A DNA stretch of 64,000 nucleotides from Candidatus Aminicenantes bacterium (GCA_963702005.1 OY969696.1:1408001-1472000); one strand, 5' to 3'; numbered from the stretch's first letter, positions 22,184 through 42,766 are shown. Translations and numbers: made by a program. Notes: generated by a model from the sequence alone, not told the origin.

Positions 22184-22212
22184 TTGCAAAAATAAAATTA
22201 TAATTTTATACT
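22184..22212 (+). promoter_or_regulatory. Sigma70-type promoter with a palindrome filling the spacer
   Basis: TTGCAA-17 nt-TATACT; perfect palindrome ATAAAATTATAATTTTAT at 22192-22209. Confidence 0.55.
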
Positions 22213-22450
22213 TTTTGTCAGTTTGTCAGTAGGTTATCCTTTGAAATTTGCGTTCTTGTTATCTAGCATCTGAATAAGAGACCCATAAAAAGGCAAGCTA
22301 AAAAAATTGCTAAAGCAATTTTCTAAACAGATGCATTCTATGCAGTGTCATGTCAAGGCGTCTCGGTCAAGCTCATAGCTTTATAGGCAGCGATTCGCAA
22401 GGGATCGCACGCGAGCATAAACTGAATTTGGCTGTTTGTGGGAAACGAAG

Positions 22451-23737
22451 ATGGTTATTGAGGCAAAACAAAGAGCAAGATTTGCTTTAGCCATTTGTAC
22501 TACGGCGGGCATGCTCATCTTATGGGCATTTTATTTTAAAATCCCCCTTTCAACGGATGATTGGCACTGGGGCAATGTTCTTAAGCAGGGTATCCCACTT
22601 CCGCTCATAGACCCCTATTTCTTTAGGCTCCCAGTCTGCAAAGCCATATTTAATCTTACGTTCCCGATTCTCCTTCATTTTCCCTTTTGGGGTAAATTGC
22701 TCGTTTGGGGGCTGGGAATTTTTGGGATTTATCTCCCTCTCTCTTGGTTCTTTCGCAAGTACCACTATTATCTTTCTCTTTTGCCGTTGACCGCTCTTTT
22801 GATTTTTTTTGCGCCAAATCAATATGAGCTAAATTACAATTTATCTTCATTGCCATTTTGTTTTGGGTTTCTTTTTGTCGGTCTCGGATTCCACTTATTC
22901 AGAAAAGGATTGAGGTTTCCGGGAGTGTTTTTGTACTTGCTATCATTTCTAACGCTTGAAAGCTTTATTGTTCTAATAATTCTCCTTGAATTTTCTGCAT
23001 ATCTTCCTGATCTAACTCATCGAAAATCATGGATGGCAATAGGACGCAATCTTCTTTCCATTTTTATCCCCTATGCAGTCATTAGGCTTGTCTTGTACTT
23101 CATTCATCCCTATGGCTACAATGTTGCACAGTCCATCAAGCTTACGCAGGTAAGAGGCCTCGTCATCCACAGCTTTTTAATCAGTTTTTTCAAACTGAAT
23201 TCTATCCTTTCTTTTCTCCAGCTTCTGCTCTTCGGTTTCCTTGCGATTAAAATTATAAAATCTCTCCATCCTAACAAGAGGAGGGACTGGCTTCTTTCGA
23301 TTATTATTCTTGCGATTCTTTTCTTCGCGGCGAGCAGTTATTATTTTATTCTCGGCTATCCGGCAGGACGAGCATTAGCAGGACAGGTAGCTTTTTGTTG
23401 GGGATCATATTTATTGCTTGTTATTTGCTATATTAATAAGAGACGCGTTAGCCTTCCAGCCGGAATTATTTTGTTGATCATTTTTATATCGGTCCAAATC
23501 GCCAGTCAAACGCTTATTTATAGGACCAAAGATAATAATTATCGTCAGATATCTCATGAAATTGCCTCAATCAGGAATGAGCTTGACATGAAAACGGGTT
23601 CGGTGGACATCGACGCGACCAAAGTTCGATCACATTTCAAGAGAGATTGGATATTCGGCTCTAACGAGGATGTTGAAATGATGTTCAGGTATTTTCTTAC
23701 TCCTTTTGAATTCTCCCGTTTGCATGTCAGAAAGTAG
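22451..23737 (+). CDS. Polytopic membrane protein, probable GT-C/GtrII-like glycosyltransferase, in a low-GC islet
   Basis: About 10-11 hydrophobic segments; DD motif after TM1 (STDDW); codons much more AT-rich than the flanks. Confidence 0.6.
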   Translation: MVIEAKQRARFALAICTTAGMLILWAFYFKIPLSTDDWHWGNVLKQGIPLPLIDPYFFRLPVCKAIFNLTFPILLHFPFWGKLLVWGLGIFGIYLPLSWFFRKYHYYLSLLPLTALLIFFAPNQYELNYNLSSLPFCFGFLFVGLGFHLFRKGLRFPGVFLYLLSFLTLESFIVLIILLEFSAYLPDLTHRKSWMAIGRNLLSIFIPYAVIRLVLYFIHPYGYNVAQSIKLTQVRGLVIHSFLISFFKLNSILSFLQLLLFGFLAIKIIKSLHPNKRRDWLLSIIILAILFFAASSYYFILGYPAGRALAGQVAFCWGSYLLLVICYINKRRVSLPAGIILLIIFISVQIASQTLIYRTKDNNYRQISHEIASIRNELDMKTGSVDIDATKVRSHFKRDWIFGSNEDVEMMFRYFLTPFEFSRLHVRK

Positions 23738-23859
23738 CGTAAGACATCCCGCCTCCTTATCGAATAAGAAGGGATTGTGATAGCTTACAGCCGTAATCTC
23801 GGGCAAAAAATGATGGAGCAATGTCCAAAATAATACAAGTCTTTCGTTAATCAGTATCC

Positions 23860-27108: not shown

Positions 27109-29691
27109 ATGAAATGGGACAAATGGACCGTCATGTCGCAAGAGGCCCTGCGCCTCGCCCAATCCAAAGCCGAGGAGCTCGGTCATGCCGAGATCGGGCC
27201 CGAGCATTTTCTCTGGGCGTTTCTGACCCAGGAGGAAAACATCGTCACGGCCGTGCTGGCCAAGATCGGCGCGAATCCGGCCGCCCTGCGCGGCGCTCTC
27301 GAATCGGCCCTGGCCCGGATGCCCAAGGTCCGCGGCGGCGGGCCGCTCGTTCCCTCCGGCCTTCTCCAGAAGATTTTAGCCGAGGCCGAAAAAGAAGCCG
27401 ACGCCCTCAGGGACGAATATATCTCGACCGAGCACATCTTCCTGGCCCTCCTTAAGGAAGAGACGTCCGAAGCCGCCCGCCTTCTCAAGGAACAGGGCGT
27501 CGGCCGGGACGCGGTCCTCCAGGCCCTCCGGTCGCTGCGCGGCTCCCAGCGCGTCACCGACCCCGAGCCGGAAGGCAAGTTCCGCGTCCTGGAGAAATAC
27601 GCCCGCGACCTGACGGCCCTCGCCAGGCAGGGAAAGATCGATCCCGTCATCGGCCGGGAGGACGAAATCCGGCGGGTCGTCCAGGTCCTGTCGCGGCGGA
27701 CCAAGAACAATCCCGTCCTGATCGGCGAGGCGGGCGTCGGCAAAACGGCCATCGTCGAAGGCCTGGCCCAGCGGATCGCGAACGGCGATGTCCCGCAGTC
27801 CCTCAAGGACAAGCGAGTTCTCGCCCTCGACATCGGGGCCCTCGTCGCCGGCACCAAATACCGCGGCGAGTTCGAGGACCGTCTCAAGGCCGTCCTGCGC
27901 GAGATCAAGGACGCGGGCGGCGAGGTCATCCTGTTCATCGACGAGCTCCACACCGTGGTCGGGGCGGGCGCGGCCGAAGGGGCCGTCGACGCCTCGAACA
28001 TGCTCAAGCCGGCCCTGGCCCGGGGCGAGCTCCGCTGCGTCGGGGCGACGACCCTCAGCGAGTACAAGAAGCACATCGAGAAGGACCCCGCCCTCGAGCG
28101 CCGTTTCCAGCAGGTCTATGTCGGCGAGCCCTCGGTCGAGGACACGATCTCGATCCTGCGCGGGATCAAGGAGAAGTACGAAATCCATCACGGCGTCAAG
28201 ATCAAGGACGCGGCCCTCGTCGCGGCCGCGACCCTCTCGAACCGCTACATCGCCAACCGGTTCCTTCCCGACAAGGCCATCGACCTCGTCGACGAGGCGG
28301 CCAGCCGAATCCGGATCCAGGTCGACAGCCTTCCCGAGGACGTCGACGAGCTCGAGCGGCGCATCCTCCAGCTCGAGGTCGAGAAACAAGCCCTCAAAAA
28401 GGAGAAGGACGCGGCCGCCAAGGATCGACTGGCCAAGATCGATAAGGAGCTGGCCGACCTCAAGGAACGGGCGGCCGGCCTCAAGGGGCGCTGGCAGAGG
28501 GAGAAGGACCTCATCGGCGAGGTCGGGAAACTCAAGGAAACCATCGACGGCCTCAAGGTCGAACAGGCCAACGCCGAGCGGCGGGGAGATCTCGAACGGG
28601 CGGCCGAGATCCGCTACGGGAAGCTTATCGAAGCCGGCCGGAAGCTTGAGGACACGACGGCCAGGCTGGCCGAGCTCCAGAAGACTGGCAAGATGCTCAA
28701 GGAGGAGGTCGACGAGGAGGACGTCGCCCAGATCGTCTCGAAATGGACCGGCATCCCCGTCTCCAAGATGCTCGAAGGCGACGCTGCCCGGCTCATCATG
28801 ATGGAGTCCAACCTCGCCCGACGGGTCGTCGGCCAGGACGACGCCCTGCGCGCCGTCGCCGACACGATCCGGCGGGCCCGGGCCGGGATCCAGGATCCCT
28901 CGCGGCCGATCGGCTCTTTCCTGTTCCTCGGCCCGACCGGCGTCGGCAAGACCGAGTTGGCCCGCGCCCTGGCCGAGTTCCTGTTCGACGACGAAAAAGC
29001 CATGGTCCGCCTCGACATGTCCGAATACATGGAGAAGCACACGGTGGCCCGGCTGATCGGAGCTCCTCCCGGCTACGTCGGATACGAAGAGGGCGGCCAG
29101 CTGACCGAGGCCGTCAAACGGCGGCCCTACTCGATCGTCCTCCTGGACGAAATCGAGAAAGCCCATCCCGATATCTTCAACGTTCTTCTTCAGATCCTCG
29201 ACGACGGCCGGCTGACCGACGGCCAGGGTCGGACGGTCGACTTCCGGAACACGCTCATCATCATGACCTCGAACTTGGGGAGCCAGGTCATCAAGGAGCT
29301 GGGCCGGGACCACGAGCGGATGGAGAATGAGGTCAAGGCCATCCTCGAGAGCCAGTTCAGGCCCGAATTCCTCAACCGGGTCGACGAGGTCATCATCTTC
29401 CGTGCCTTGGCCAAGGAAAGCCTCCTTAAAATCGTGGACATCCAGCTCGGCCTGCTCCGGGATCGGCTCGCGGAAAAGAAGATCGGGATCGAGGCCAGTC
29501 AGGCCGCCAAGGAGCTTCTGGCCCAACGAGGCTATGACCCCGTCTACGGCGCCCGGCCCCTCAAGCGGGTCATCCAGCGGGACATCCAGAACCAGCTCGC
29601 CCACAAGATCATCGTCGGCGAGTACAAGGATGGGGACACCGTCCGGATCGACGCCGACAAAAGCGGCGGCTTCACGTTCACCCGGAAGTAA
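27109..29691 (+). CDS. clpB: Chaperone ClpB
   Basis: Two AAA+ modules ([16 protein letters not shown]), coiled-coil M domain, [13 protein letters not shown]. Confidence 0.97.
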
Positions 29692-29750
29692 AATCCCGCC
29701 GTCCGCCCCGGTTTGACCCGTTCGCCGCCGCTACCCCGCCTTGCGGTACT

Positions 29751-29778
29751 CATACTAAGCCGGAAACGGCTTAGTATG
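29751..29778. terminator. Perfect 12-bp hairpin with GAAA tetraloop after clpB (terminator or processing stem)
   Basis: CATACTAAGCCG-GAAA-CGGCTTAGTATG; no clear U-tract. Confidence 0.5.
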
Positions 29779-29790
29779 GGTGTCGAGGGT

Positions 29791-29819
29791 TTGACTTTGC
29801 CTCAGGCGCGATTTATATT
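29791..29819 (+). promoter_or_regulatory. Sigma70 promoter of the SPT-like operon
   Basis: TTGACT-17 nt-TATATT. Confidence 0.65.
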
Positions 29820-29852
29820 AGGGTGCCCGAGATCAGAGGAAAGGACGTACGC

Positions 29853-31085
29853 ATGGATCTTTTCGAAAAATGCAGGGGATTTTATTCGGACCCGCGAGTC
29901 GCCCAGAAGTACGGCTATCCCACAAATCCGAGAACGGCCCAGGCCTTGGGGATCTTCCCCTATTTCATCCCGATCGATCAGGCCGAGGGCACCGAGGTCG
30001 TCATCGACGGCAAGACATACATCATGATCGGATCGAACAACTACCTCGGACTGACCAGCCATCCCAAGGTCAGGGAAGCGGCCATCGAGGCCATCCGCAA
30101 ATTCGGGACGAGCTGCACCGGTTCCCGATTCCTCAACGGGACCCTCCATATGCACATCGAGCTCGAGGAGCGGCTGGCCCGCTGGGTGGCTATGGAGGCG
30201 GCCCTCGTCTTCAGCACCGGATTTCAGGTCAACCTGGGAAGCATTCCCGCCATCATGGACCGCAACGACATCATCGTCACCGATAAAGAGGTTCATGCCA
30301 GCATCATCGACGGCGTGCGCATGGCGAAAGCCCAGAAGTCCGTCCACACCCGGTATTTCAAGCACAATGACCCCGGCGACCTGGACGTCATCTTGAACGG
30401 CCTCGACAAGGAGTCCGGCAAGCTCGTCATCGTCGACGGCGTCTTCAGCATGGGCGGAGACATCAGCCCCCTGGCCGAAATCGTGCCGATCTGCAAGAAA
30501 TACGGGGCCCGCCTCATGGTCGACGACGCGCATTCCCTGGGCGTGCTCGGCGGCGGACGCGGAACCGCCCACCATTTCAACCTGGCCGGCCAGGTCGACC
30601 TCATCATGGGAACCTTCAGCAAATCCTTCGCCTCGGTCGGGGGATTCATCTCCGGACCCAAAGAGGCCATCCACTGGATCCAGGTCTTTGCCCGTCCTTT
30701 CATATTCAGCGCCAGTCTGCCGCCCCCCAACGTGGCGACCGTCCTGGCCTGTCTCGATGTCATGGAGCAGGAGCCGGAGCGCGTCGAGCGGGTCCTGGCC
30801 ATCGGCGAGCGGGTGCGGACCGAACTCCGGGGCATGGGCTACAACATCGGGAACAGCCAGACGCCGATCATCCCCATCGTCATCGGCGACATGATGGATA
30901 CCATGAAGGCCTGGAAGATCCTGTTCGCGGCCGGGATCTACACGAACGTCGCCATGCCGCCGGCCGTCCCCCCCAACGAATCGCTCCTGCGGACGAGCTA
31001 TATGGCGACGCACACCGACGAGCAGGTCGACCGGGTGCTTGAAACCTTCAAGCGCCTCAAAGACCAGATCCATATCGAGCCCTAA
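29853..31085 (+). CDS. PLP alpha-oxoamine synthase, most like bacterial serine palmitoyltransferase
   Basis: GIFPYF...GSNNYLGL, GSRFLNGT, HASIIDG, VDDAH, GTFSKS. Confidence 0.8.
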   Translation: MDLFEKCRGFYSDPRVAQKYGYPTNPRTAQALGIFPYFIPIDQAEGTEVVIDGKTYIMIGSNNYLGLTSHPKVREAAIEAIRKFGTSCTGSRFLNGTLHMHIELEERLARWVAMEAALVFSTGFQVNLGSIPAIMDRNDIIVTDKEVHASIIDGVRMAKAQKSVHTRYFKHNDPGDLDVILNGLDKESGKLVIVDGVFSMGGDISPLAEIVPICKKYGARLMVDDAHSLGVLGGGRGTAHHFNLAGQVDLIMGTFSKSFASVGGFISGPKEAIHWIQVFARPFIFSASLPPPNVATVLACLDVMEQEPERVERVLAIGERVRTELRGMGYNIGNSQTPIIPIVIGDMMDTMKAWKILFAAGIYTNVAMPPAVPPNESLLRTSYMATHTDEQVDRVLETFKRLKDQIHIEP

Positions 31086-31113
31086 GGGAACGCAAAGTTC
31101 CAGGGAGGTTGAC

Positions 31114-32418
31114 ATGAAACGCGCCCTAACGCTCCTCGGCGTCTTGGGATTGGCCGCCGCCTTGGCCGGACCGGTCTTCGCCAACGGACTGAACCTCAAC
31201 AGCCTGGGCTCGCGGGCCCTGGCCATGGGGGGCGCCTATGTCGGGCTGGCCAACGACTTCAGCGCCATTTTCTGGAACCCGGCCGGGATCGCCTCCATCA
31301 AGCAGCGGACCTTCGGATTCTACGGGACCGACATCATTCCCAAAGGGAGCTACCGTTTCGACGCCCTCGATCCCGACCTCGGTGAAGTCACTATGGTCGA
31401 CGCCAAGACGAAGACCAAGCACTACCTGGCCGGGCTGGCGGCCTACTATGTCCCCTTGAGCAAGACCGTCACGGCCGGGCTCGGCGTCTACGTCCCCTCC
31501 GGTCTGGGCGCCGCTTGGAAGGGCGACGACTTCAAGAAGATCTCGCTGGGGACGGCCTACGAATGGTCGAGCAAGGTCGGCCTGGTGACGATCGCGCCGG
31601 CATTGGCCTGGCAGGTTGACGATAGGATCGCGGTCGGCGCGACCCTCGACATCAACTACGGCAGTTTCGACCTCAAGACCCACGCCGGCTCGGTCCCCGG
31701 CGCGAACGGGCCGCGTGACCTCGGCCAATACGAAGAGAACCTCAAGGGCTGGGGATACGGAGCGACGCTGGGCATCCTCGTCAAGCCCCATCGGCTCTTC
31801 AGCCTGGGCGCAACCGTCCGGACGGCCAGCAAGGTCAGCCTCGAGGGCGAGGCCCGGATCTCGAACCTGGCCTACCTCGGCCTCAAGGACGTTTCGGACA
31901 TCAAGCGGGACGTGGCCTGGCCCCTCTGGCTCGCGGTGGGGGTCGCCTTCTACCCCAGCCAAGTCTTAACCCTAACGGCCGACGTCCAATACACGCGCTG
32001 GTCCAAGATGGACGTCATGAAAACCCAGTATCTGGACCCGTTCTGGGCCGTCCTCATGGCCGCCGACGCCGAGCGGCCCATGCACTGGAAGGACGCGACC
32101 CAAATCCGCTTCGGGGCCGAGTACCGCATCCGTCCGGACCTGGCGCTGAGGGCGGGCTACTATTGGGACCCGACGCCCGTCCCGGATCAGACCATGAACG
32201 TCCTTCTCCCCAGCTACGACTTCAACGTCGCGACCTTCGGCTTGGGCTATGTCCTGGACGGCCTGGCCATCGACCTCGGGTTTGAGCTCTTAATGGGGGC
32301 CAAGCGGACCGTCGGCTTCCTCAACTGGTACTTCGATCCCGAGTACAAATCGGCCATGCCCGGGACGTACGAGATGACGCTCCTCGTCCCGAACCTGTCC
32401 ATCCGCTACGAGTTCTGA
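31114..32418 (+). CDS. FadL/OmpP1 long-chain fatty acid outer-membrane transporter
   Basis: Signal peptide, GSRALAMGGA...FWNPAG hatch motif, LRAGY, terminal YEF. Confidence 0.88.
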   Translation: MKRALTLLGVLGLAAALAGPVFANGLNLNSLGSRALAMGGAYVGLANDFSAIFWNPAGIASIKQRTFGFYGTDIIPKGSYRFDALDPDLGEVTMVDAKTKTKHYLAGLAAYYVPLSKTVTAGLGVYVPSGLGAAWKGDDFKKISLGTAYEWSSKVGLVTIAPALAWQVDDRIAVGATLDINYGSFDLKTHAGSVPGANGPRDLGQYEENLKGWGYGATLGILVKPHRLFSLGATVRTASKVSLEGEARISNLAYLGLKDVSDIKRDVAWPLWLAVGVAFYPSQVLTLTADVQYTRWSKMDVMKTQYLDPFWAVLMAADAERPMHWKDATQIRFGAEYRIRPDLALRAGYYWDPTPVPDQTMNVLLPSYDFNVATFGLGYVLDGLAIDLGFELLMGAKRTVGFLNWYFDPEYKSAMPGTYEMTLLVPNLSIRYEF

Positions 32419-32441
32419 GCGGGAGATCTCGAGGTTCGCCC

Positions 32442-33308
32442 ATGAGCGTCCGTAAAGCCGTCATCCCCGCAGCCGGGTTCGGGACACGCTTCCTCCCCGT
32501 CACCAAGGCCCTCCCCAAGGAGATGCTCAACGTCATCGACAAGCCCCTCATCCATTACTGCGTCGAGGAGATTCTGGGCGCCGATATCCGCAAGATCGGG
32601 ATCGTCACCAGCCGGGGCAAGAGCGCCCTCGAAGATTACTTCGACCGGAGTCCCGAGCTCGAGGAGTTCCTCCGGGCCAAGGGGAAGCTCGACCTGCTCG
32701 AGGAGGTCCGCCGGATCGCCGGCCTGGCCGAGTTCAGCTACATCCGTCAGCCCCAGGCCCTCGGACTGGGACACGCGATCCTGATGGGCGAGACCTTCGT
32801 CGGCAACGAGCCGTTCGCGGCCTTGACGCCCGACGACATCTACGATTGCCGGCCGTCCTGCGTCAAACAGCTCGTCGACTGCTTCGGCGAGCGGGGAGGG
32901 ACCGTCATCGTCCTGGGCCGGATCGACGCCGAGGGGACCACCAAGTACGGCGTGATCAAGCCTCTGCCGATCTCGGACCGCGTCTTTCAGGTTCTCGACC
33001 TCGCCGAGAAACCCGGCCCGGAGCGGGCCTTCTCGGACTTGGGCGTCCTCGGCCGCTACGTCTTCACGCCCCGCATCTTCGACGCCATCAAGCGGACGCC
33101 GCCCGACGCCCGGGGCGAGATTCAGATCACGGATGCCATCCGGGTCCTCCTCGACGAGGAGCCCGTCTACGGCCTGCTGTTCGAGGGGCGCCGCTACGAC
33201 TGCGGGGATAAATGGGGTTTGCTCGAGGCGACCGTCGAGCTGGCCCTCAACCGCCCCGAATTCAAGGACGACCTGAAGGCCCTCATCGACCGTTTGAGCC
33301 GGGGCTGA
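32442..33308 (+). CDS. galU: UTP--glucose-1-phosphate uridylyltransferase
   Basis: [40 protein letters not shown]. Confidence 0.93.
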
Positions 33309-33345
33309 TCCGGAACGACCTGCCAGCGACCCGAAAGGACGCGCC

Positions 33346-34794
33346 ATGAAGAGCCTGTTCATTACCAAAGACATCGAGAAGGTCCAGGAGGAAGCGCGGG
33401 ACGACAGCCACGGGCTGCGGCGGGTCCTCGGACCCTGGCACCTCCTCCTCCTCGGCGTCGGGGCCATCATCGGCGCCGGGATCTTCGTCCTGACCGGCCA
33501 CGCGGCGGCCCTGTACGCCGGACCGGCCATCGTCCTCTCCTTCGTCCTGGCCGGGATCGCCTGCGGCCTGGCCGGCCTCTGCTACGCGGAATTCGCCTCG
33601 ATGATCCCGATCTCGGGGAGCGCTTACACCTATGCCTACTACACACTGGGCGAGTTCGTGGCCTGGATCATCGGCTGGGACCTCATCCTCGAATACTCAC
33701 TGGGCGCCACGGCCGTCTCGATCGGCTGGTCGGGCTACATCACCAGCCTTCTCCGGGACATTGGAATCGCTCTTCCCGTGAAGCTGACGTCGGCGCCCTA
33801 CGCTTTCAACCCGGAGTCCGGACACTGGACGGCGACGGGCGCCTGGGTCAACGTTCCGGCCGCCTTCATCGTCCTCCTGATCATGTCCCTTCTCGTCATC
33901 GGGATCCGCGAGTCGGCCCGGGTCAACGCGGTTATCGTCGTCGTCAAGGTCATGGTCATCGTCGTCTTCATTGTGGCCGGCCTCTCCTTCATTAAGCCCG
34001 CCCTCTGGAAACCGTTCATCCCGGCCAACACGGGGTCGTTCGGGTTCTTCGGCTGGAGCGGAATCCTGCGGGGCGCCGGCGTCATCTTCTTCGCCTACCT
34101 CGGTTTCGACGCCGTCTCGACGACGGCCCAGGAGGCCCGGAATCCCCAGAAAGATATGCCCTTCGGCATCCTGGGGAGCCTCGCCGTGTGCACGGTCCTC
34201 TACATCGTCGTCACGATGGTCATGACCGGGGTCGTCCCCTTCACGGAGCTCAACGTCGCGGCTCCCGTGGCGGTCGCCATCGACGCCATGAAGCTCCCCT
34301 GGCTCCAGATCCTGGTCAAGATCGGAGCCGTGGCCGGCATTACTTCGGTCATCCTCGTCCAGCTCCTGGGCCAGCCCCGGATCTTCTTCGCGATGGCCAA
34401 CGACGGGTTGCTGCCCCGTGCGGCCTCGCGGGTCCATGCCAGGTTTCGGACTCCCTACGTCACGACGATCACGACCGGCGTTGTCGTGGCCGGGCTGGCG
34501 GCGTTTCTGCCGATCGGGATCGTGGGCGAGCTCGTCAGCATCGGGACGCTGATGGCCTTCATGATCGTCTGCGGAGGGGTTCTCGTCCTAAGATACAAGA
34601 GGCCGGACCTACACCGGCCGTTCAAGACGCCCTGGGTTCCTCTGGTCCCTATCCTCGGGATCCTATCCTGTCTGTACTTGATGTTCAGCCTGCCCCGGGA
34701 CACCTGGATCAGGCTCCTTGTCTGGCTCGTCGCCGGGTTCGCGATCTATTTCGGATATGGGAGGCGAAAGAGCCGGCTGCGGCAATCCAAATAG
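33346..34794 (+). CDS. APC family (CAT-like) amino acid permease
   Basis: [30 protein letters not shown] motifs. Confidence 0.92.
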
Positions 34795-34838
34795 CCGCGG
34801 CCGGGTCCGATCGAATCCGATTCCATTCATAAGCGCCG

Positions 34839-36221
34839 ATGAAAATTCTGCTCGTCCAACCCAAGCTGGAACGAAGCTTCTTCGGCGACATCCGGCTTCC
34901 CCCGCTGGGACTGGCCTTTTTGGCCGGCGTCCTGCGGGAGGCGGGCCATGAAGTGAGGATCCTCGACGCCATCCTGACTCGCCGCCAGCTAAGCGCCATC
35001 GCTGAGGCGGCCGGGGACTTCGAGCCGGAGGTCGTGGGCGTCAGCGCCACCTCGCCCCTGGCCGGGACGGCCTGCCGGATCGCCGCGCTCGTAAAGACGA
35101 TCGTCCCCGCCGCGACCACGGTCCTGGGCGGGGTCCATCCGACCTTGTTCCCGGAAGACATGCTGCGGGAGCCTGCGGTCGACTATGTCATCCGTGGCGA
35201 GGGCGAGAGCAGCCTGGCTGCCCTGGTGGACATTCTGGCCGGGGGCGGCCGTCCCGATCGGGTGGACGGATTGGCTTTCCGACGCAACGGCGAGGTCGTG
35301 GTCAACCCGCCTGCCGCTCCGCCTCCGGACCTTGATGCCCTGCCGTTTCCCGCCTACGACCTTTTTCCCATCCGTAAGTACTATAGCCTCCAGATCGCCG
35401 AGCACCCGTTCGGATCCATGATCACCAGCCGGGGCTGTCCCTACCAATGCATATTCTGCAGCGCGCGGGCCACGATGGGAGCGCGCTACAGGGCTTATTC
35501 TCCGCGCCGGATCGTCGCCGAGATCCGTTTCCTGGTGGACCGATTCCAAGTCCGAGAAATCCTGTTCAAGGACAGCGAGTTTACGCTCGACCCGGCCCGG
35601 GTCGAGGCGTTCTGCGAGCTCCTCCTGGCGGAGGGCCTCCGGGTCCGTTGGTCCTGCAACGGCCGGATCGGCCGGGCGAGCCTGGCCCTGCTCGAAAAGA
35701 TGCGGGCGGCCGGCTGCCGGCTCATCGAATACGGCATCGAATCGGGCGATGACGAGATCCTTGAGACCCTCGACAAGCGTATCACCGTCGATCAGGTCCG
35801 GGAGACATTTGCCCTGACCCGCCGGGCCGGCTTGAAAACGATCGCTAACTTCATGATCGGGAATCCCGGCGAGACGAGGCGTTCCGTGGAAAAGACGCTC
35901 CGGCTGGCCAACGAGATTCGGCCGGATTTCTGCGATTTTTCATTTGCCACCGCCTTACCGGGGACGAGGCTTTATACCATGGCCCTTGAGAACGGCTGGC
36001 TGCTGAAAAGCTACGATCCGTCCCATATCCGGCTGGACGAGTGCGTCATGAACGCGACCCGCATGAGCCTGACCGAATTGCGCCGGATGTTCAAGAAGGC
36101 CTACCGTTCGTTCTACCTGCGTCCGGGCTATATCCTAGACCGGGCGGCGCGTCTTCATCCGTTCGAATGGAAGATGAGCGCTATCGGGATGCTCCGGGTC
36201 CTGGGCTTGCGGCAGAGGTAG
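34839..36221 (+). CDS. Cobalamin-binding radical SAM protein
   Basis: PPLGLA..AG, GGVHPT, TSRGCPYQCIFC, GIESG, FMIGNPGET. Confidence 0.92.
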   Translation: MKILLVQPKLERSFFGDIRLPPLGLAFLAGVLREAGHEVRILDAILTRRQLSAIAEAAGDFEPEVVGVSATSPLAGTACRIAALVKTIVPAATTVLGGVHPTLFPEDMLREPAVDYVIRGEGESSLAALVDILAGGGRPDRVDGLAFRRNGEVVVNPPAAPPPDLDALPFPAYDLFPIRKYYSLQIAEHPFGSMITSRGCPYQCIFCSARATMGARYRAYSPRRIVAEIRFLVDRFQVREILFKDSEFTLDPARVEAFCELLLAEGLRVRWSCNGRIGRASLALLEKMRAAGCRLIEYGIESGDDEILETLDKRITVDQVRETFALTRRAGLKTIANFMIGNPGETRRSVEKTLRLANEIRPDFCDFSFATALPGTRLYTMALENGWLLKSYDPSHIRLDECVMNATRMSLTELRRMFKKAYRSFYLRPGYILDRAARLHPFEWKMSAIGMLRVLGLRQR

Positions 36222-36276
36222 GAGATACTCGAGTTTTCTCCGGGACGCAGCGGACCGCGTCGCCGCTCGCCGGATC

Positions 36277-38361
36277 TCAGCGCGGCTCGCCCGCCCGCTT
36301 GGCCTCGACCGGATTCGGGCTCGACAGGACTTTCAGTCCGGTGACGCGCCCCGCCGGGTCGAGGCTGAAACCGATCTCGCTCGTCCGGCCCGTGCTCAAG
36401 TCATAGCTGGCGAAAGTCGTCTGCGATTGGGGCAGGAAGGCGATCGCCGGAGGCGCCGGCTGCGGGCGGATTCCGACCAGGCTCCCGCCGCCCCACATGA
36501 ACAGCGTATAAGCTGAGCCGCGCTCGAAGTCGTAACGGATGATCGTCGTCGCGTCCACCGGGCTCATGGTCGTCCGAGGGCCCCGCGACGCCGCCTGGAG
36601 GACGGTCCCCAGGACATGAGTGCCTTGCAGTGCGCCGAAAGCCTCCGTCCGTTGCTTCCGGACCGTGTCTTCCCGTTTTTGGATTTCTTCCAGCGGCAAG
36701 GGCAGCTGCGGGCCCAAAGCCTTGGACAGGGGTCCGTAGTCGCCCTTGGCGGCCGCGTCCACGATGGCCATAGAGCGGGCGTTCAGCTCTTGGAGGCGGG
36801 CCGTCGCGTCGGGACCGTCGCCCATGAGAAGGCTTATCGCTTCTTGTCCTTCGGAGACCAGGGCAAGGCCGTCGCCATCGACGGTCACGATCAAACGCGC
36901 GCCGGACGTCAGCCGATAGCCGCCCGCGTACTTCGCCGATACCCCCGGAGCGAGCTTGACAACCCGCGGGGGCGGCGGGACGTCGCGGCCTTTGACGATG
37001 GGGACGATCGTCCGCTCCAAGTCCATGGCCCTCATCCCGGCATCGGTCGAGGCGATGAAGACGGCCAATCCCAAGGCCGGTTCCCGATAATACACGAAGT
37101 AGTGTATGCCGTCGCCACCGACCAGCGTCAGCGGCTTGTCCTGAGGGAAGAGCCTAGCCTTGGATTCTTGGGAAAGAAGCGCATCTCCTTCCAGGGCGAG
37201 GTAAAACCGGTACATGTCGCCCAGGGTCGAGAGCGTGCCGCCGTTTCCGCGCAGGTTCCAGTGGGGTCCGTCCGGGGCGTGGGGGTAATCGAAGGTCGAT
37301 CCGCGATCTTGGCCGCCGGAGTAGCTGTGCGCGATCTGGCCCGGCTTCCACTTCGGCAGCACATATCCGGTTTGGGACATCCCGGCCGGCTTGAAAATAT
37401 GCTCGTCGACAAACGCCTCGTAGGATTGCCCCGAGATTTTTTCGATGACGGCGGCGAGCAGGCTGTAGCCCGGGTTGGAGTATTTCATTTCCGTCCCCGG
37501 CTTGGCCACAAGCTGGGACTCGAACATTCGCTTGAGGAATTCGTCTCGGGAGACGGCCTCTTCGTCGGGGCCCGAGTAGAGCTTCAGGCCGGCCGTGTGC
37601 TCGAGGAGTTGTCCGATCGTTATCCCCGCCTTATCCGGGGGCACGCCGTCGAAATACTTGCCGATCGGGTCGTCGAGCCGGAGCCGGCCCTGTTCGGCGA
37701 GCTGGAGAACGGCCGTTTTGGTGAAGTCTTTGGTGTTCGATCCGATGTCGAACGCCGTTTCCGCGCCGCAGGGAGTCGAATTTGACCGATCGGCCAGGCC
37801 GCAGCCTTTTTCGAGGAGGATCGTCCCTTTCCGGGCGATCAGGACGCCGCCGGAAAAACCGAACGCCTCGAGCCGCGTCATGAATTCAGCCAACTTCTGA
37901 CGGAGTTCGTCGTCGCCGATCGAGGACGAAAGGGCCGTCTCGGGCGCGGAGGACGGCGGCTCGGATTGTTCAATGCGGATCTGGTCGATTTTATAGGGCG
38001 GTTTCGGCGTCAATAGGAACGAAAAAGTGAACCAGCCGCCCTTGCCCGCGCTGGCCAAGACGGATATCGCCGTCTCGGTCGAATCGGCGACGGAAAAGAC
38101 GGTCAGGGCGCCCATCCGAGACCACATCTGACGGTAGTAACGGAGACGTTCATCGACCGATCGGCGCAGCAGGGCCTCCTGGCCGATAGTGTCGATGAAG
38201 AACCGGGCCATGACCTGGTCGGACCCGGAATTGAAACTCTTAATGTATTGAGCGGCTATCCGGCCGGCCGGAGTGTCGGGGATCGGGACGCCCTGGACCG
38301 CGAGACCCGACCAGGGAGCCCACGCCATAAGAATGAGTGCCGCGAACCGTTTAAGCTTCAT
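36277..38361 (-). CDS. Secreted serine hydrolase (beta-lactamase/AmpC-like fold) with extra N- and C-terminal domains
   Basis: Signal peptide; SxxK (GSNTK), LLEHTAG, YSN motifs. Confidence 0.85.
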   Translation of the reverse strand: MKLKRFAALILMAWAPWSGLAVQGVPIPDTPAGRIAAQYIKSFNSGSDQVMARFFIDTIGQEALLRRSVDERLRYYRQMWSRMGALTVFSVADSTETAISVLASAGKGGWFTFSFLLTPKPPYKIDQIRIEQSEPPSSAPETALSSSIGDDELRQKLAEFMTRLEAFGFSGGVLIARKGTILLEKGCGLADRSNSTPCGAETAFDIGSNTKDFTKTAVLQLAEQGRLRLDDPIGKYFDGVPPDKAGITIGQLLEHTAGLKLYSGPDEEAVSRDEFLKRMFESQLVAKPGTEMKYSNPGYSLLAAVIEKISGQSYEAFVDEHIFKPAGMSQTGYVLPKWKPGQIAHSYSGGQDRGSTFDYPHAPDGPHWNLRGNGGTLSTLGDMYRFYLALEGDALLSQESKARLFPQDKPLTLVGGDGIHYFVYYREPALGLAVFIASTDAGMRAMDLERTIVPIVKGRDVPPPPRVVKLAPGVSAKYAGGYRLTSGARLIVTVDGDGLALVSEGQEAISLLMGDGPDATARLQELNARSMAIVDAAAKGDYGPLSKALGPQLPLPLEEIQKREDTVRKQRTEAFGALQGTHVLGTVLQAASRGPRTTMSPVDATTIIRYDFERGSAYTLFMWGGGSLVGIRPQPAPPAIAFLPQSQTTFASYDLSTGRTSEIGFSLDPAGRVTGLKVLSSPNPVEAKRAGEPR

Positions 38362-38447
38362 GCCGCCTCCCGTAAGAACTTATTGTAAGCGAACGGCGGA
38401 TAAAGCGCGAGTTCTCCACGCGACGGCAATATGTCGAAAATAAAAAA

Positions 38448-38520
38448 TGGCAAGGGACGGAATCGAACCGCCGACGCAGGGATTTTCAGTCCCTCGCTCT
38501 ACCTGCTGAGCTACCTTGCC
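38448..38520 (-). tRNA. tRNA-Phe(GAA), CCA not encoded
   Basis: GGCAAGG/CCTTGCC acceptor stem, AGGGA-CTGAAAA-TCCCT anticodon arm, GGTTCGATT T-loop. Confidence 0.97.
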
Positions 38521-38539
38521 ATTCGGCCTCGCGGCGCCC

Positions 38540-38571
38540 ATTATATTAATTTTATGGGCTGGCTTTGTCAA
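38540..38571 (-). promoter_or_regulatory. tRNA-Phe promoter
   Basis: TTGACA-17 nt-TAATAT, with an overlapping TATAAT. Confidence 0.6.
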
Positions 38572-38634
38572 GACGATAGGAAATGCTTCAGCCGGGGACT
38601 TGCTGCCGTTTTTTTGGTAGAATACCGACTGTCC

Positions 38635-39621
38635 ATGCTCAGGATCGCCGCGCTTCTTCCCCATACCGAGGTCTTCGGAGGGGTTCGCCGTTACATCGAG
38701 ATCGGGAACGAATTCGCCCGGCGCGGCCATGAGTTTACCCTGTTCACTCCCTCCGGCGAGCCTCCCGCCTGGCTCCCGTATCGGGGACGGCTCAAATCCT
38801 TCGCCGATCTCGCCCGGGAGGCGTTCGACATCGGTCTCTGCAGCGAGTACTCCATCCTGGACGGATTCGACGGGCTGCGGGCGTCCCGGAAATACTTCTA
38901 TTTCGTCCTCGAAGGCCATAAGCGGGAGCGCGAAGTCGTCCGCCGGAATTTCCTTTTTCTGGGGAATTCCGAGGGCCTTTGCCGCCGGATCGAGCGCGTC
39001 TACGGCGTCGTCTGCCGCCGCGCCCCGGGCGGCGTCAACGCCGAAATCTTTCACCCTCTCGATCCCGCCGAGAGGCCGGCCCGGCCGCCCGGCCAGTTCC
39101 GAGTCCTCTGTTACGGACGGGTCGCCAAGCGGCGGAAGGGCGTCCCGCTGGCCATCAAGGCCGTCGAGCGGCTCCGCCGCCGCCACGCCGGCCTCAGGCT
39201 CGTCTTCTTCGACAGCCTGGTCGGCGCCGACCGGCGCGATCCCCGCCCCTTGATAAGAACGTCTATCCCCCATGAGTTCCACCTCAACCTTCCCCAGAGC
39301 CGGATGGCCTGGCTGTTCGGAAGCGCCGACGCCTTCGTCTCCGCTGAAAAGCGGGCCGGCTGGGCCAACACGGCCGCCGAGGCTATGGCCTGCCGCCTCC
39401 CGGTCGTGTGCACCCCGAGCGGGACCATGGATTTCGCGCTCCCCGGGGAGACGGCCCTGGTCGTCCCCATCCGCCGCCCTTATTTCATCGCCCGCGCCCT
39501 CCGCCGCCTGATCGAGGACCCCGCCCTGGCCCGACGCCTGGCCGAGGCCGGGTTCCGGAAGATCCAGGAATTCACCTGGCCGGACCTCGTTTCCCGCCTG
39601 GAAGCCTATTTCAGGGAATAG
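38635..39621 (+). CDS. Glycosyltransferase family 4 (GT-B)
   Basis: GGVRR...N, GW..TAAEAMACRLPVV, GETAL, FTW motifs. Confidence 0.88.
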   Translation: MLRIAALLPHTEVFGGVRRYIEIGNEFARRGHEFTLFTPSGEPPAWLPYRGRLKSFADLAREAFDIGLCSEYSILDGFDGLRASRKYFYFVLEGHKREREVVRRNFLFLGNSEGLCRRIERVYGVVCRRAPGGVNAEIFHPLDPAERPARPPGQFRVLCYGRVAKRRKGVPLAIKAVERLRRRHAGLRLVFFDSLVGADRRDPRPLIRTSIPHEFHLNLPQSRMAWLFGSADAFVSAEKRAGWANTAAEAMACRLPVVCTPSGTMDFALPGETALVVPIRRPYFIARALRRLIEDPALARRLAEAGFRKIQEFTWPDLVSRLEAYFRE

Positions 39622-39689
39622 GGGAGCCTCCGGGCTAAATTGAATTAGCTCTCCGGATGTGCTAATCTTGTGCGTTGGAGGACGGCTTC

Positions 39690-39911
39690 ATGGAAGAGAG
39701 AGAGCTCAAGGAACGCATGCTCCGCGAGAATGAAGAGTTCAGGCGGGTCTTTGAGGAGCATCGGAATTTCGACCGGGCCCTCGAGGCGCTCCGACGGAAA
39801 TCCGCCCCGTCCGAGGAGGATCTCCTCGCCGAAAAGGAGCTCAAGAAGAAGAAGCTCGCCCTCAAGGACCGGATGTACCTCATGATGGCGGAGTACCGCG
39901 GATCCGTCTGA
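39690..39911 (+). CDS. DUF465/YdcH family coiled-coil protein
   Basis: EEH..FD...LKKKKL.LKD pattern; GGAGG SD. Confidence 0.8.
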   Translation: MEERELKERMLRENEEFRRVFEEHRNFDRALEALRRKSAPSEEDLLAEKELKKKKLALKDRMYLMMAEYRGSV

Positions 39912-39929
39912 GCCCGGAAACCGATCGGC

Positions 39930-40967
39930 ATGAAGACGAAAGCCCCTCTCCGTTGCGCTCTGGTCGGCACCGAAACGCTGCGGGGGAAGGAGCTCAAAGA
40001 CGTCCTGGATGAAAAGAAATTTCCCGTCAAGGTCATGGAATTCTACGACGCTGACGTCCGGGGGGAGTACAGCAAGTTGACCGAGTTCCGGGGGGAACCC
40101 AAGGTCATCCATCCCCTGGATCGGAGCCTCCTCGACGGGCTGGACATCGTTTTCCTGGCCGGGGATCCGAAGCTGAACCGGGAGCTAGGCCGCCTCGCCC
40201 TAGAAGGACGGTTCAAGGCCGTCGACGTCGCCGACAGCTTCAACGCGGACGCCACGGTCCCGATCGTTGTCGCCGGCGTCAACGACGACCGGGCGCGCCA
40301 GCTGAAGCCCCGGCTGGCCGCCAATCCCCATCCGGTCACGGTCATCCTCTCCCATGTCCTCGACGCTCTGCGCGGGCCGTTCGGAATCCACAAGGCGGTC
40401 GCCTTCGTCCTGGAGCCCGTTTCGGCCTTCGCGGATGCGGGGATCGCGGAGCTCGCCAACCAGAGCTTCGCCATGCTCAGCGGCGGTGGATCGGATGAAA
40501 AGAGCGTCTTTCCCGAGAAGATCGCCTTCAACCTCCTGTGCCGAACGGAGAAGGGCCTCCCGAGCGGGTTCTCGGCCGTCGAGCGCAGGATCATCTCCGA
40601 GGTCCGAAGGGTCCTCGACGACCCGGCCTTTCCCTTGTCCCTATCCCTCGTCTTGGCCCCAATCTTTCATACCTATTCCGTCATGATCTTCGTCGAGCTC
40701 GCCAAGGACGCGGGCCTCGCCGATCTCGAGAAGACCTTCAAGGATCGGCCGCTCTTCGCGCTCGAAAAGCCGGGCGCCGTCTGCTCCGTGTCCCCCGTCT
40801 CGGTCGCCGGGACGGAAGGGATTTCGATCGGGTCGCTAAAACGCGAGGAGGCTTTTCCCAGGGCCTTCTGGGTCTGGGCTGTCGCCGACAACCTGACCCG
40901 GGGTTCGGCCTTGAACGCCTTGGGCATCGCGAGCCTGCTCGCGGCGGCTTCCGAACCGGTATCATGA
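39930..40967 (+). CDS. Aspartate-semialdehyde dehydrogenase-like (Usg-like) protein lacking the catalytic Cys
   Basis: VP.VV.GVN, IAFNL, ADNLTRGSALNA retained; NPNC is replaced by NPHP. Confidence 0.8.
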   Translation: MKTKAPLRCALVGTETLRGKELKDVLDEKKFPVKVMEFYDADVRGEYSKLTEFRGEPKVIHPLDRSLLDGLDIVFLAGDPKLNRELGRLALEGRFKAVDVADSFNADATVPIVVAGVNDDRARQLKPRLAANPHPVTVILSHVLDALRGPFGIHKAVAFVLEPVSAFADAGIAELANQSFAMLSGGGSDEKSVFPEKIAFNLLCRTEKGLPSGFSAVERRIISEVRRVLDDPAFPLSLSLVLAPIFHTYSVMIFVELAKDAGLADLEKTFKDRPLFALEKPGAVCSVSPVSVAGTEGISIGSLKREEAFPRAFWVWAVADNLTRGSALNALGIASLLAAASEPVS

Positions 40968-42766
40968 AAGAGATCCTCCAGCTCTTCCGGCTCTCCTTCA
41001 AGGAGAAAAGGCTTCTCTTCCTCTCCTTCGCCGCCAACCTTTTTGTCGCCTTTTTCACTTACCTGTTCGTCAACCTCGTCCAGCCGATTATCGATAAACT
41101 GTTCCCGCACGTTTCGGGCCCGGTCCCGGCCAAGACCCGGCTGCTCGATGTCTTTTTCAGCCGCCTCCATGTGACGGACGCGGACCTGAAGTGGGTCCTT
41201 CCTCTCCTGATCGTCATCGTCATCTTTGGGAAGGGCCTCTTCGACTATTTTTCGGCCTTCTTCATGAAAGCGGTCGGCCATAGAGTCATCAAGAAGATTC
41301 GGGACGACCTTTATGTCCGCCTCATCTATCAATCCGCCGGCTTCTTCGACCGCATCTCGACCGGCGAGCTCATGTCGCGCCTGACCAACGACGTCGATAA
41401 GATTCAGCAGGCGGTCTCGGGCAGCCTGGGGGACTTGGTCGAGGAGCTGTTCATCCTGGTCGCTCTTCTCGTCAGTGTCTTCGTCATCGATTGGCATCTG
41501 GCCGTGACCTCCTTCGTCGTCACCCCGCTGGCCCTCATCCCGCTGGCCGCCTTCAGCCGGCAGCTCAAGAAAAAAAGCCTCCAGGGCCAAGTCAAGATGG
41601 CCCGTATCTACGAGCTTCTTCACGAGACGATCGCCGGCCACCGGATCGTCAAGGCCTTCACGACCGAGGAGTTTGAGATCAAGCGCTTCCTCCAGGCCAC
41701 CTACAGCTATTTCAAGACGAACATCAAGCTGGCCCGGATCGGGAGCATGGCCTCGCCCTTCATGGAATTCATCGGCGGGATCGCGGGCGCCTTCATCCTC
41801 ATCGTCGGGACGAAGCGGATCGGCCAGGGTGATATCAGCCCCGGCGACTTCGGAGCCTTCGTCATGGCGGTATTCTCCATGTATATGCCGATCCGCCGCC
41901 TGAGCCGGGCCAACAACCAGGTCCAGCAGGGAGTCGCCAGCTGGGGACGGATCGAAGAGTTGCTCAAGGCCGTCCCCCAGGTCCAGGATCCGCCGCTGGC
42001 CTACCCGATGCCGCCGGTCAAAGGGCGGGTCCGCTTCGAGGATGTGTCCTTCAGCTACAACCAGGACAGGCCCGTCCTTAACCACGTCGATATCACGGTC
42101 GAGCCGACCGAGACGGTCGCCCTGGTTGGCCTGAGCGGCGCCGGCAAGACGACCATCATCAACCTCCTGACCCGGTTTTACGACGCGACGGACGGCCGGA
42201 TCACGATCGACGGGATCAACATCCGCGAGGTGACCCTGGCCTCCCTGCGCTCCCGGATCGGCCTGGTCTCCCAGGATATCATTCTCTTCAACGACACGAT
42301 CCGGAACAACATCGCCTACGGAATGGCCGAGGCCTCGGCCGAGCAGATCGAAGCGGCCGCCCGAGCCGCCGAAGCCCACAACTTCATCACGGACCTGCCC
42401 AAAGGTTATGATACGGCGATCGGAGAGAGGGGAGGGCTCCTCTCGACCGGCCAGAAACAGCGGCTGGCTATTGCCCGGGCTCTTCTCAAAGACCCTGCGA
42501 TTCTCATCCTGGACGAGGCGACCTCGGCCCTCGATTCGGAGTCCGAGTCCCTGATCCAGAAGGCCTTGGCCAATATCCGGCACAGTCGAACCACGATCAT
42601 CATCGCCCACCGCCTGTCGACGGTCCGGAGCGCGGACAAGATCTTCGTCGTCGACAAGGGGACGATCGCCGAATGGGGGACCCACGAGGAGCTCTGCCGC
42701 CAGAACGGCATCTACTGGAAGCTCTACGACCTTCAGTTCCCCGAGGACGAGGAGATCCAACGATGA
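40964..42766 (+). CDS. msbA: Lipid A export ABC transporter, MsbA-like
   Basis: Six-TM domain plus NBD (GLSGAGKT, LSTGQKQR, LDEATSALD). Confidence 0.8.
   Translation: MKEILQLFRLSFKEKRLLFLSFAANLFVAFFTYLFVNLVQPIIDKLFPHVSGPVPAKTRLLDVFFSRLHVTDADLKWVLPLLIVIVIFGKGLFDYFSAFFMKAVGHRVIKKIRDDLYVRLIYQSAGFFDRISTGELMSRLTNDVDKIQQAVSGSLGDLVEELFILVALLVSVFVIDWHLAVTSFVVTPLALIPLAAFSRQLKKKSLQGQVKMARIYELLHETIAGHRIVKAFTTEEFEIKRFLQATYSYFKTNIKLARIGSMASPFMEFIGGIAGAFILIVGTKRIGQGDISPGDFGAFVMAVFSMYMPIRRLSRANNQVQQGVASWGRIEELLKAVPQVQDPPLAYPMPPVKGRVRFEDVSFSYNQDRPVLNHVDITVEPTETVALVGLSGAGKTTIINLLTRFYDATDGRITIDGINIREVTLASLRSRIGLVSQDIILFNDTIRNNIAYGMAEASAEQIEAAARAAEAHNFITDLPKGYDTAIGERGGLLSTGQKQRLAIARALLKDPAILILDEATSALDSESESLIQKALANIRHSRTTIIIAHRLSTVRSADKIFVVDKGTIAEWGTHEELCRQNGIYWKLYDLQFPEDEEIQR

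Follow-up and report, generated by a model that had tools for sequence, protein, structure and literature searches.

The closest described systems to the gene string studied here are the serine palmitoyltransferase (SPT) of Sphingobacterium multivorum (SmSPT; PDB 3A2B/8GUH; NCBIfam model NF047600), for which 15 active-site residues have been named from crystal structures (PMC10196870), and the sphingolipid gene cluster of Caulobacter and Rhodobacteria (spt, acpR, aasR, cerR, bcerS), whose CerR is described as NDUFA9-like (PMC11087976). In addition, Spt-like genes of uncultured anaerobes of the Black Sea were reported from 38 phyla, often unlinked to bCerS/CerR, and SPT relatives outside the classical clade, with Anaerolineae prominent, were assigned to a clade B (Ding et al. 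2024, ISME J, PMC11334938). Here, we describe a stretch of 64,000 nucleotides (G000:C1:1408001-1472000, the window) from the genome of a Candidatus Aminicenantes bacterium, in which a string of five co-directional genes starts with an SPT-like alpha-oxoamine synthase (AOS). The initial annotation, made from the DNA alone, had read this string as a single unit that imports both SPT substrates and makes a glycosylated or methylated sphingoid or other amino lipid. Our analysis leads to a different reading, to which we assign a probability of roughly three in four: the five genes would be a mosaic and not a pathway operon, the AOS would be an SPT-like enzyme of a type (A) that is interchangeable with a second type (B), and its partners would more likely be encoded in the conserved block of genes around type B (B block) than next door.

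Aminicenantes are uncultured anaerobes that are abundant in sediments and wetlands, and we know of no description of their membrane lipids. The genome analysed is a single contig of 4.31 Mb with ~63% G+C and is 94% complete; the nearest named protein relatives of the window come from metagenome bins of Aminicenantes and Acidobacteriota. Genes of the window were assigned to families using Pfam and NCBIfam, and the string comprises the following features:

29791..29819, + strand: sigma-70-type promoter TTGACT-17-TATATT, found by motif scan 33 nt 5' of the AOS ATG
29853..31085, + strand: SPT-like AOS, type A, 410 aa (NF047600, 479.6 bits)
31114..32418, + strand: outer-membrane channel of the OMPP1/FadL/TodX family (PF03349, 158 bits)
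32442..33308, + strand: GalU, UTP-glucose-1-phosphate uridylyltransferase (TIGR01099, 322.8 bits vs cut-off 326.8)
33346..34794, + strand: APC-family amino acid permease, BcaP-like (PF13520, 202.6 bits)
34839..36221, + strand: radical S-adenosylmethionine (SAM) protein with B12-binding domain (PF02310 and PF04055)

The AOS resembles SPTs more than any other group of its superfamily. Among the NCBIfam models, the SPT (CFB) model NF047600 ranked first (479.6 bits), followed by SPT (Beta) (397.3), TIGR01825 (373), BioF (370.5) and Kbl (344.4), so that SPT (CFB) is 107 bits ahead of the next non-SPT model. Each of these five scores is lower than the cut-off of its model. The ten best sequence matches in the PDB are all bacterial SPTs, with 360 bits for the S. 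multivorum and ~283 bits for the S. paucimobilis enzyme; the scores of other members of the superfamily were 279 for Thermus BioF/Kbl, 232 for E. coli Kbl, 217-223 for cysteate acyltransferases, ~190 for BioF and 185 for ALAS. Both motifs pointed out in the initial annotation, GIFPYF and GSRFLNGT, are present in the translation, and the latter is shared with SmSPT, to which this soluble, single-domain protein aligns over residues 29-409. The structural report names 15 residues of the SmSPT active site, 14 of which are identical in the AOS (N52, G80, S81, F114, H138, S185, D210, A212, H213, T241, S243, K244, S273 and A274); among them are the Lys of GTFSKS that forms the Schiff base, the stacking His and the Asp and His on the pyridoxal 5'-phosphate (PLP). 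The sole change is Ile in place of Met271, a residue which contacts the substrate via its main chain. The most likely function of the AOS is the PLP-dependent condensation of a long-chain acyl-CoA or acyl-acyl carrier protein (acyl-ACP) with an amino acid, of which L-serine is the most probable, a reaction that would release CO2 and yield a 3-keto long-chain base.

Phylogenetic analysis placed the AOS on the same side. As anchors, we used BioF and Kbl of E. coli K-12 as well as two AOS each of Bacteroidales and Roseomonas taken from PLSDB; these four AOS pass the respective SPT cut-offs (683.8 and 700.5 vs 640 bits; 625.5 and 613.2 vs 500 bits). A quick tree contained 103 rows, after 21 of 124 had been dropped as at least 96% identical to a kept row. 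A careful tree (LG+C20+F+G4) contained 41 rows, namely the anchors, the window AOS, the paralogs B and C of the same genome, an AOS from a Priestia plasmid and every third remaining row; the long-branched paralog D of the same genome and one Kbl-like row were left out of it. In both trees, one branch splits Kbl and BioF from types A and B together with the SPT anchors, with a support of 99/97 in the careful and 98 in the quick tree.

That the enzyme is an ordinary BioF or Kbl merely resembling SPT is a reading to which we give next to no credence. Although many close homologs are annotated by the Joint Genome Institute (JGI) as 8-amino-7-oxononanoate synthase and the BioF model gives 370.5 bits, this score lies below the BioF cut-off (TIGR00858, 426.45 bits), as does the Kbl score below that of NF005394 (344.4 vs 460 bits), and the SPT anchors themselves reach 316-390 bits on the BioF model. 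Furthermore, BioA and BioB were not found in the 94% complete genome (best matches of 247 vs 405 bits and 43 vs 225 bits, respectively), and a separate Kbl equivalog, paralog C, is encoded elsewhere (569.2 bits vs a cut-off of 460). Taken together, the hidden Markov model (HMM) ranking, the PDB ranking, the active-site residues, the split from E. coli BioF and Kbl and the missing biotin pathway mean that the assignment as SPT-like rather than BioF/Kbl, as made in the initial annotation, stands on the level of sequence comparison.

The gene order around the AOS, in contrast to what the unit proposed by the initial annotation would predict, is not conserved. Orthologs of the AOS (at least 72% identity) occur in 16 of the 41 genomes of the order. 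We compared 80 species-representative type A loci across phyla, a sample which is biased since it consists of the best matches to type A. Neighbours in common with the window were found in two of these loci, both from the same genus, and the four partner genes are absent near the type A relatives in the other 78. Even within the genus the order varies: one genome (G001) has clpB-AOS-GalU without FadL, and the other (G002) has AOS-FadL-GalU-APC before the contig ends, with a FadL that is 58% identical. In 13 type A loci of other families, of which 65 of 78 open reading frames (ORFs) were scanned, the 13 from two near-duplicate loci being omitted, the neighbours are unrelated (e.g. SecA, DUF362, ECF sigma, ADI-like, PhzF, MetK, PEPCK) and none is shared with the window except for a divergent FadL paralog in two loci.

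When GalU instead of the AOS is taken as the starting point, an older arrangement becomes apparent, in which the following features flanking the string take part or lie nearby:

27109..29691, + strand: clpB (TIGR03346 ClpB, 1335.5 bits vs cut-off 1232), member of the ancestral array mutS-clpB-FadL-GalU that flanks the string on its 5' side
29748..29781, + strand: hairpin after clpB with 15-nt arms, a 4-nt loop and 93% complementarity, without a T run
36277..38361, - strand: convergent gene for a beta-lactamase-fold protein of 694 aa (PF00144, 192 bits)
38431..39621, + strand: GT4 glycosyltransferase (PF00534 and PF13692)
40538..42766, + strand: MsbA-like ATP-binding cassette (ABC) lipid exporter (TIGR02203, 540.9 bits vs cut-off 602)

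All ten GalU loci of other families have the order mutS - 114-aa ORF - clpB - (FadL) - GalU. In each of them clpB adjoins FadL or GalU, and in nine FadL lies between clpB and GalU without any AOS. A GT4 gene follows 3' of GalU at a distance of 0.1-2.6 kb in seven of the ten, the slot in between containing other small ORFs, and an MsbA-like exporter is found downstream in seven as well. None of these ten loci contains the AOS, the permease, the radical SAM gene or the beta-lactamase-fold gene. Since the AOS is missing from the slot in all ten, its insertion, which separated clpB from FadL, took place in this genus, and the absence of all four genes from the arrays of other families identifies this part of the window as the old array plus two sets of insertions. 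In this lineage, an order-wide array mutS - small ORF - clpB - FadL-family porin - GalU...GT4 - MsbA-like received, first, the type A AOS, which came to lie immediately downstream of a sigma-70-type promoter in the clpB-FadL interval, and second, the APC permease, the B12 radical SAM gene and the convergent beta-lactamase-fold gene between GalU and GT4. Consensus-like promoters precede FadL in other families at the same relative place as the promoter at 29791 precedes the AOS. This position would agree with the AOS having landed behind a promoter that was already there, although sequences this short do not suffice to demonstrate common descent. In a repeat search, neither insertion was found to be bordered by direct or inverted repeats, the hits being GC-rich chance matches, and there was no mobile-element signature. 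The G+C content at third codon positions (GC3) of the five genes is 0.81-0.90, the same as that of their neighbours; hence, there is no compositional sign of a recent foreign origin.

The partner genes do not bear out the roles that they had been given in the proposed lipid pathway either. The channel gene has an ATG start followed by a signal-peptide-like N-terminus and shares with E. coli FadL the family PF03349 over its full length. It differs in that it reaches only 30.7 bits on the FadL equivalog NF007988, against a cut-off of 585, and in that its nearest solved chains are TbuX and TodX (48-53 bits) rather than FadL (20 bits), which speaks against an assignment as long-chain fatty acid importer. 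GalU matches TIGR01099 over its full length, slightly below the cut-off. The genome contains one match to it and, besides, only a 29%-identical nucleotidyltransferase; matches occur in 30 of the 41 genomes of the order. By these counts GalU is a predicted single housekeeping copy, and, as it stood next to FadL without the AOS in the ancestral array, we do not regard it as a dedicated supply of UDP-glucose for a sphingolipid. For the permease, BcaP (NF053761) is the top-scoring model, with 618.4 bits below its cut-off of 690; the gene also lies 3' of GalU in G002, and a 44%-identical paralog is encoded elsewhere in the genome.

The radical SAM protein had been proposed to methylate or modify a lipid. 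It scores far below the cut-offs of all NCBIfam equivalogs (BchE, 234 vs 481 bits), including the lipid-modifying ones HpnJ (TIGR03471, 226.8 vs 577.6), HpnR (TIGR04367, 127.8 vs 650) and the ladderane family (TIGR04072, 152.8 vs 360), and its nearest solved chain is the diol dehydratase AprD4 with 134 bits. At E<=1e-80, no match was found in the same-genus genomes G001 (92% complete) and G002 (83% complete), the best matches being a protein of 49% identity in G003 and a paralog of 48% identity in the same genome. The proposed lipid-modifying function thus finds no backing, and the distribution of the gene identifies it as a putative lineage-specific insertion. As a separate observation, the 48%-identical paralog heads a co-directional cluster (L169:193-8932; G000:C1:1224192-1232931) with the order B12 radical SAM - NUDIX - two radical SAM - 302-aa ORF - radical SAM/SPASM - UbiA prenyltransferase - Memo-like, for which a role in prenyl-lipid or quinone tailoring is possible.

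With regard to transcription, the five co-directional + strand ORFs described in the initial annotation are present, separated by gaps of 28, 23, 37 and 44 nt. The promoter, which sits in an intergenic gap of 161 nt, is present as well. Its two hexamers and the 5' leader are conserved in G001 and G002, the two genomes from the same genus, despite divergence of the spacer and of the DNA upstream. The occurrence of the motif by itself is not informative, since a scan of 8 kb yielded one promoter-type site, compared to 1.3 +/- 1.1 in shuffled sequences. The hairpin downstream of clpB is possibly the clpB terminator. All four intergenic gaps were free of terminator-like sites; two such sites were detected on the + strand, both of them intragenic. 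From the short gaps and terminator-free junctions, the five genes are probably co-transcribed. DNA contigs of wetland metagenomes (four runs, three studies) span the FadL/GalU, GalU/APC and APC/radical SAM junctions, although the best-covering run may be the source sample and thus is not independent support; among the contig pieces listed, none spans the AOS/FadL junction with at least 31 nt on both sides. A joint from 32391 to 38436 in X1 and X3, with sides of 36-37 nt and 30 other letters between them, resembles the C-terminus of another organism's porin and was not counted.

These features are the strongest arguments for the dedicated unit of the initial annotation, in which FadL would import the fatty acid and the permease serine, the AOS would make the long-chain base, GalU would provide UDP-glucose and the radical SAM protein would modify the lipid: the genes are co-directional and tightly spaced without intergenic terminator-like sites, the promoter is conserved within the genus, the metagenome contigs keep three of the junctions, the permease scores best on BcaP, and GT4 and the MsbA-like exporter follow 2-5 kb downstream. 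Nevertheless, we consider such a unit highly improbable, as the synteny is confined to one genus, in which even G001 lacks FadL, and 78 of the 80 type A loci have none of the four partners. Moreover, the combination FadL-GalU-GT4-MsbA exists without the AOS in other families, and the sole GalU of the genome is required for the general supply of envelope sugars. The channel being closer to TodX/TbuX than to FadL, and the radical SAM protein being nearest to AprD4, below the lipid-related equivalogs and, at the above threshold, not found in the two same-genus genomes, argue in the same direction. A variant of this proposal, in which the string is a young, still-assembling glucosyl-sphingolipid operon, with the AOS placed behind the promoter of the envelope array, the added permease feeding it and the radical SAM protein tailoring the lipid, strikes us as very unlikely. 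If it were true, the cell would express long-chain-base synthesis together with a hydrophobic channel of the outer membrane, the supply of UDP-glucose, a glycosyltransferase and a lipid flippase. According to the mosaic reading, co-transcription would reflect co-expression by insertion and would not be evidence of a shared pathway. The locus thus illustrates that a strong promoter followed by tightly spaced genes of one direction, whose names suggest lipid metabolism, can be of recent, patchwork origin, which was exposed by comparing the neighbours of each gene separately and not those of the lead gene alone.

A more stable genomic context was found for a second SPT-like gene. The genome encodes four AOS paralogs, one of which, paralog B (C1:2396076-2397260), is located 0.96 Mb away, is 51-54% identical to the window AOS and reaches 510 bits on the SPT (CFB) model. 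It is divergent to a gene for a PF01370 NAD-epimerase-family reductase (G000:C1:2395007-2396107) and belongs to the following block:

L029:6309-14257 (G000:C1:2393309-2401257): B block, consisting of FabH - 227-aa ORF - PF01370 reductase, divergent AOS_B - S55-peptidase-like protein of 607 aa - beta-propeller protein of 717 aa

The block is kept in all 20 type B loci, from at least eight families; FabH is present in 18 of them, and the other two are cut by contig ends. A reductase ortholog occurs in nearly all 41 genomes. In loci from ten A-only genomes, nine have the intact block minus AOS_B, with only 120-220 bp between the reductase and the S55-like gene, and the tenth is cut by a contig end. 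Of the 41 genomes, 13 have type A only, 21 have type B only and three have both (G000, G005 and G025); a third SPT-like type, of 45-46% identity and not beside the reductase, is present in G018 and G040, and no SPT-like gene was detected in G029 (89% complete) and G034 (69% complete). Both A-only and B-only states occur within the families f3, f7 and f9, from which it follows that replacement between A and B happened several times; as kin are not independent, we give no statistic for this distribution. Since the B block of A-only genomes lacks nothing but AOS_B, partners of the window AOS are likelier to be found in this block than next door. We infer that types A and B are isofunctional and can replace each other, and that the partners of type A are most likely encoded in the B block, the reductase among them. 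When the 227-aa ORF was searched against the ESM Atlas, all clusters obtained were unnamed, and the ORF has no family.

Several observations weigh against the mosaic reading with its link to the B block. The short gaps and the conserved promoter are compatible with co-transcription of the string. In addition, type A is present in the complete genome G023 and in G010, in which no reductase ortholog of at least 43% identity was detected, the best matches having 36-37% identity, plus a fragment of 120 residues in G023; this weakens the claim that type A depends on the reductase. With respect to the enzyme itself, all curated SPT cut-offs are missed (NF047600, 479.6 vs 640; NF047599, 397.3 vs 500; NF047603, 322.2 vs 670 bits), the first by 160 bits, so that the AOS, which comes from an uncultured Aminicenantes bacterium and is known from its sequence alone, is not an equivalog by the NCBI standard. 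The SPT anchors of the tree are SPTs by HMM cut-off only, the tree includes no characterised SPT, HemA, CqsA or CFAT, and type A, type B, the two anchor groups and the Priestia plasmid AOS form a polytomy in the careful tree. The AOS-FadL neighbourhoods could, furthermore, be a real link: type A adjoins a FadL-family gene in four of 22 Aminicenantes species loci, in three of which it is a divergent paralog of 40-43% identity. Finally, no match to PF13444, taken as a stand-in for the bacterial ceramide synthase (bCerS), was obtained in the genome, albeit this was the wrong probe as it is silent in Caulobacter too, and a complete ceramide pathway in the genome is not shown by these searches.

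Two of these points bear on more specific alternatives. The missed cut-offs would be expected if the AOS, despite its position in the SPT-like clade, used alanine, glycine, cysteate or lysine instead of serine and made a non-sphingoid amino lipid. For Spt-like enzymes from uncultured anaerobes, Ding et al. 2024 (PMC11334938) suggest amino acids other than serine as possible substrates; this suggestion and the co-occurrence of two SPT-like types in G000, G005 and G025 fit this possibility too. We hold it to be unlikely, given that the SmSPT residues holding the carboxylate and hydroxyl of serine as named in the structural report (Asn52, Gly80, Ser81, His138 and Ser243) are all identical, that the cysteate acyltransferases reach 217-223 bits compared to 360 bits for SmSPT, and that types A and B almost exclude each other, which points to a single common function. 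The second alternative is that the AOS cooperates with the FadL-family channel, for instance in acyl uptake or in moving the hydrophobic product across the outer membrane, and that GalU, the permease and the radical SAM protein are bystanders. The two genes are in tandem in the window and in G002, and they are divergent, with an ADI-like gene in between, in L036, L063, L064, G005 and G025. The channel in the divergent cases is a different paralog (40-43% identical, compared to 47-57% for the clpB-linked orthologs), which suggests two independent juxtapositions. However, the pairing is seen in none of 57 loci of other phyla in addition to its low frequency in Aminicenantes, G001 retains the AOS with FadL absent from the slot, and FadL had its place next to clpB and GalU long before insertion of the AOS. 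A cooperation of this kind is therefore quite unlikely in our view, and we retain the mosaic reading for the channel as well.

Compared to the cluster of Caulobacter and Rhodobacteria, the Aminicenantes genome shares an SPT-like gene and, beside paralog B, an NAD-binding Rossmann-fold reductase; CerR of Caulobacter is described as NDUFA9-like (PMC11087976). The differences are that no gene for an ACP or acyl-ACP synthetase lies beside type A or B, that no bCerS candidate was identified, and that the reductase adjacent to paralog B belongs to the PF01370 epimerase family. Hypothetical proteins encoded next to spt in Roseomonas, used as possible bCerS probes, had no match in the genome; neither of them has a Pfam family, and one is without similarity to the reductase of paralog B. 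The models NF047601 and NF047602, tried as ceramide-gene models, turned out to be unrelated MscS families. As LpxC (268.7 vs 187 bits) and LpxB (277.2 vs 190 bits) are both present in the genome, a replacement of lipopolysaccharide (LPS) by sphingolipid was ruled out here.

An SPT-like gene is carried by 39 of the 41 genomes of the order, with no gene for an ACP, an acyl-ACP synthetase or a recognisable ceramide synthase alongside. This distribution hints at a core sphingoid-lipid pathway in the order, with FabH, the 227-aa ORF, the reductase, the S55-like protein and the beta-propeller protein as candidates for later steps. In combination, the near-universal SPT-like gene and the conserved FabH/reductase block make Aminicenantes a plausible source of environmental sphingoid lipids, and the displacement between A and B together with the B block names candidate partner genes for such a pathway in an uncultured order. 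A full-text literature search retrieved no paper on serine palmitoyltransferase and sphingolipid in Aminicenantes. Spt-like genes of uncultured anaerobes having already been reported (PMC11334938), the window AOS is a further member of a known group; the term 'Acidobacteriota' does not occur in the main text of that paper, the supplementary tables of which may list such bins.

A string around paralog C, the Kbl equivalog, is worth recording in this context (L030:6687-10356; G000:C1:633187-636856). It has the order AcpS - ligase - ACP-like - Kbl, followed by GatE and GatD, where the ligase is an acetate/acyl-CoA ligase (NF003313, 751 bits) and the ACP-like protein of 84 aa is a weak match to an ornithine-lipid ACP. 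The ACP and ligase beside this 'Kbl' are reminiscent of the acpR-aasR-spt clusters of Proteobacteria.

The relatives of type A in other phyla provide some information on its origin. With BioF as outgroup, the Aminicenantes type A sequences (support of 100/100) are sister to a group of Bipolaricaulota and 'Thermotogae'-labelled sequences (100/98) and are nested among Chloroflexota sequences (99/99), type B being a separate clade (100/100). The nearest relatives of type A outside Aminicenantes are Chloroflexota and Bipolaricaulota, in agreement with the prominence of Anaerolineae reported for clade B (PMC11334938). The placement would fit a transfer between these anaerobic lineages, the direction of which is not established by the tree. 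In at least 17 of the 57 loci of other phyla, a short-chain dehydrogenase/reductase (SDR) gene of the adh_short family is located immediately 5' of the type A relative on the same strand (L047, L050-L056, L072, L073, L076, L077, L079, L081, L084, L092 and L100, from Anaerolineae, Bipolaricaulota and 'Thermotogae'-labelled bins), and an AMP-binding ligase gene immediately 3' in at least four; both counts are lower bounds due to crude gene calling in those loci. The combination of an SDR with an acyl-activating enzyme next to the AOS would be compatible with long-chain-base synthesis and may form a compact candidate cluster. The SDR partners from Anaerolineae and the AMP-ligase partners from Bipolaricaulota had only generic matches of 27-35% identity in the Aminicenantes genome.

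In several Aminicenantes species, a gene of the ADI/DDAH superfamily (~292 aa) lies immediately 5' of the type A AOS on the same strand (L033:5395-6276, L035, L036, L063, L064, L017 and L018). The copy in the genome analysed here (C1:271271-272138) matches in two pieces in different frames and is possibly frameshifted.

Apart from the string, three further observations were made in the window. The array clpB - porin - GalU - variable slot - GT4 - MsbA-like (27109-42766) is kept across families (e.g. L159-L168) and may by itself constitute a module for envelope glycolipids or of an LPS-related kind. An island of low G+C content at 22111-23859 (0.42 vs ~0.63 elsewhere) gave no Rfam match and contains an ORF of 433 aa (22436-23737, + strand) with no Pfam family. 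The island separates mutS from a gene for a CDP-alcohol phosphatidyltransferase, two genes that are direct neighbours in G038 and G007, and is probably a foreign insertion. Lastly, a semialdehyde-dehydrogenase-like ORF is found at 39930-40967 between GT4 and the MsbA-like gene, with scores of 127-140 bits on the asd models, below their cut-offs. Since this ORF overlaps the long MsbA-like call, the start of the MsbA-like gene is probably near 40970 and not at 40538.

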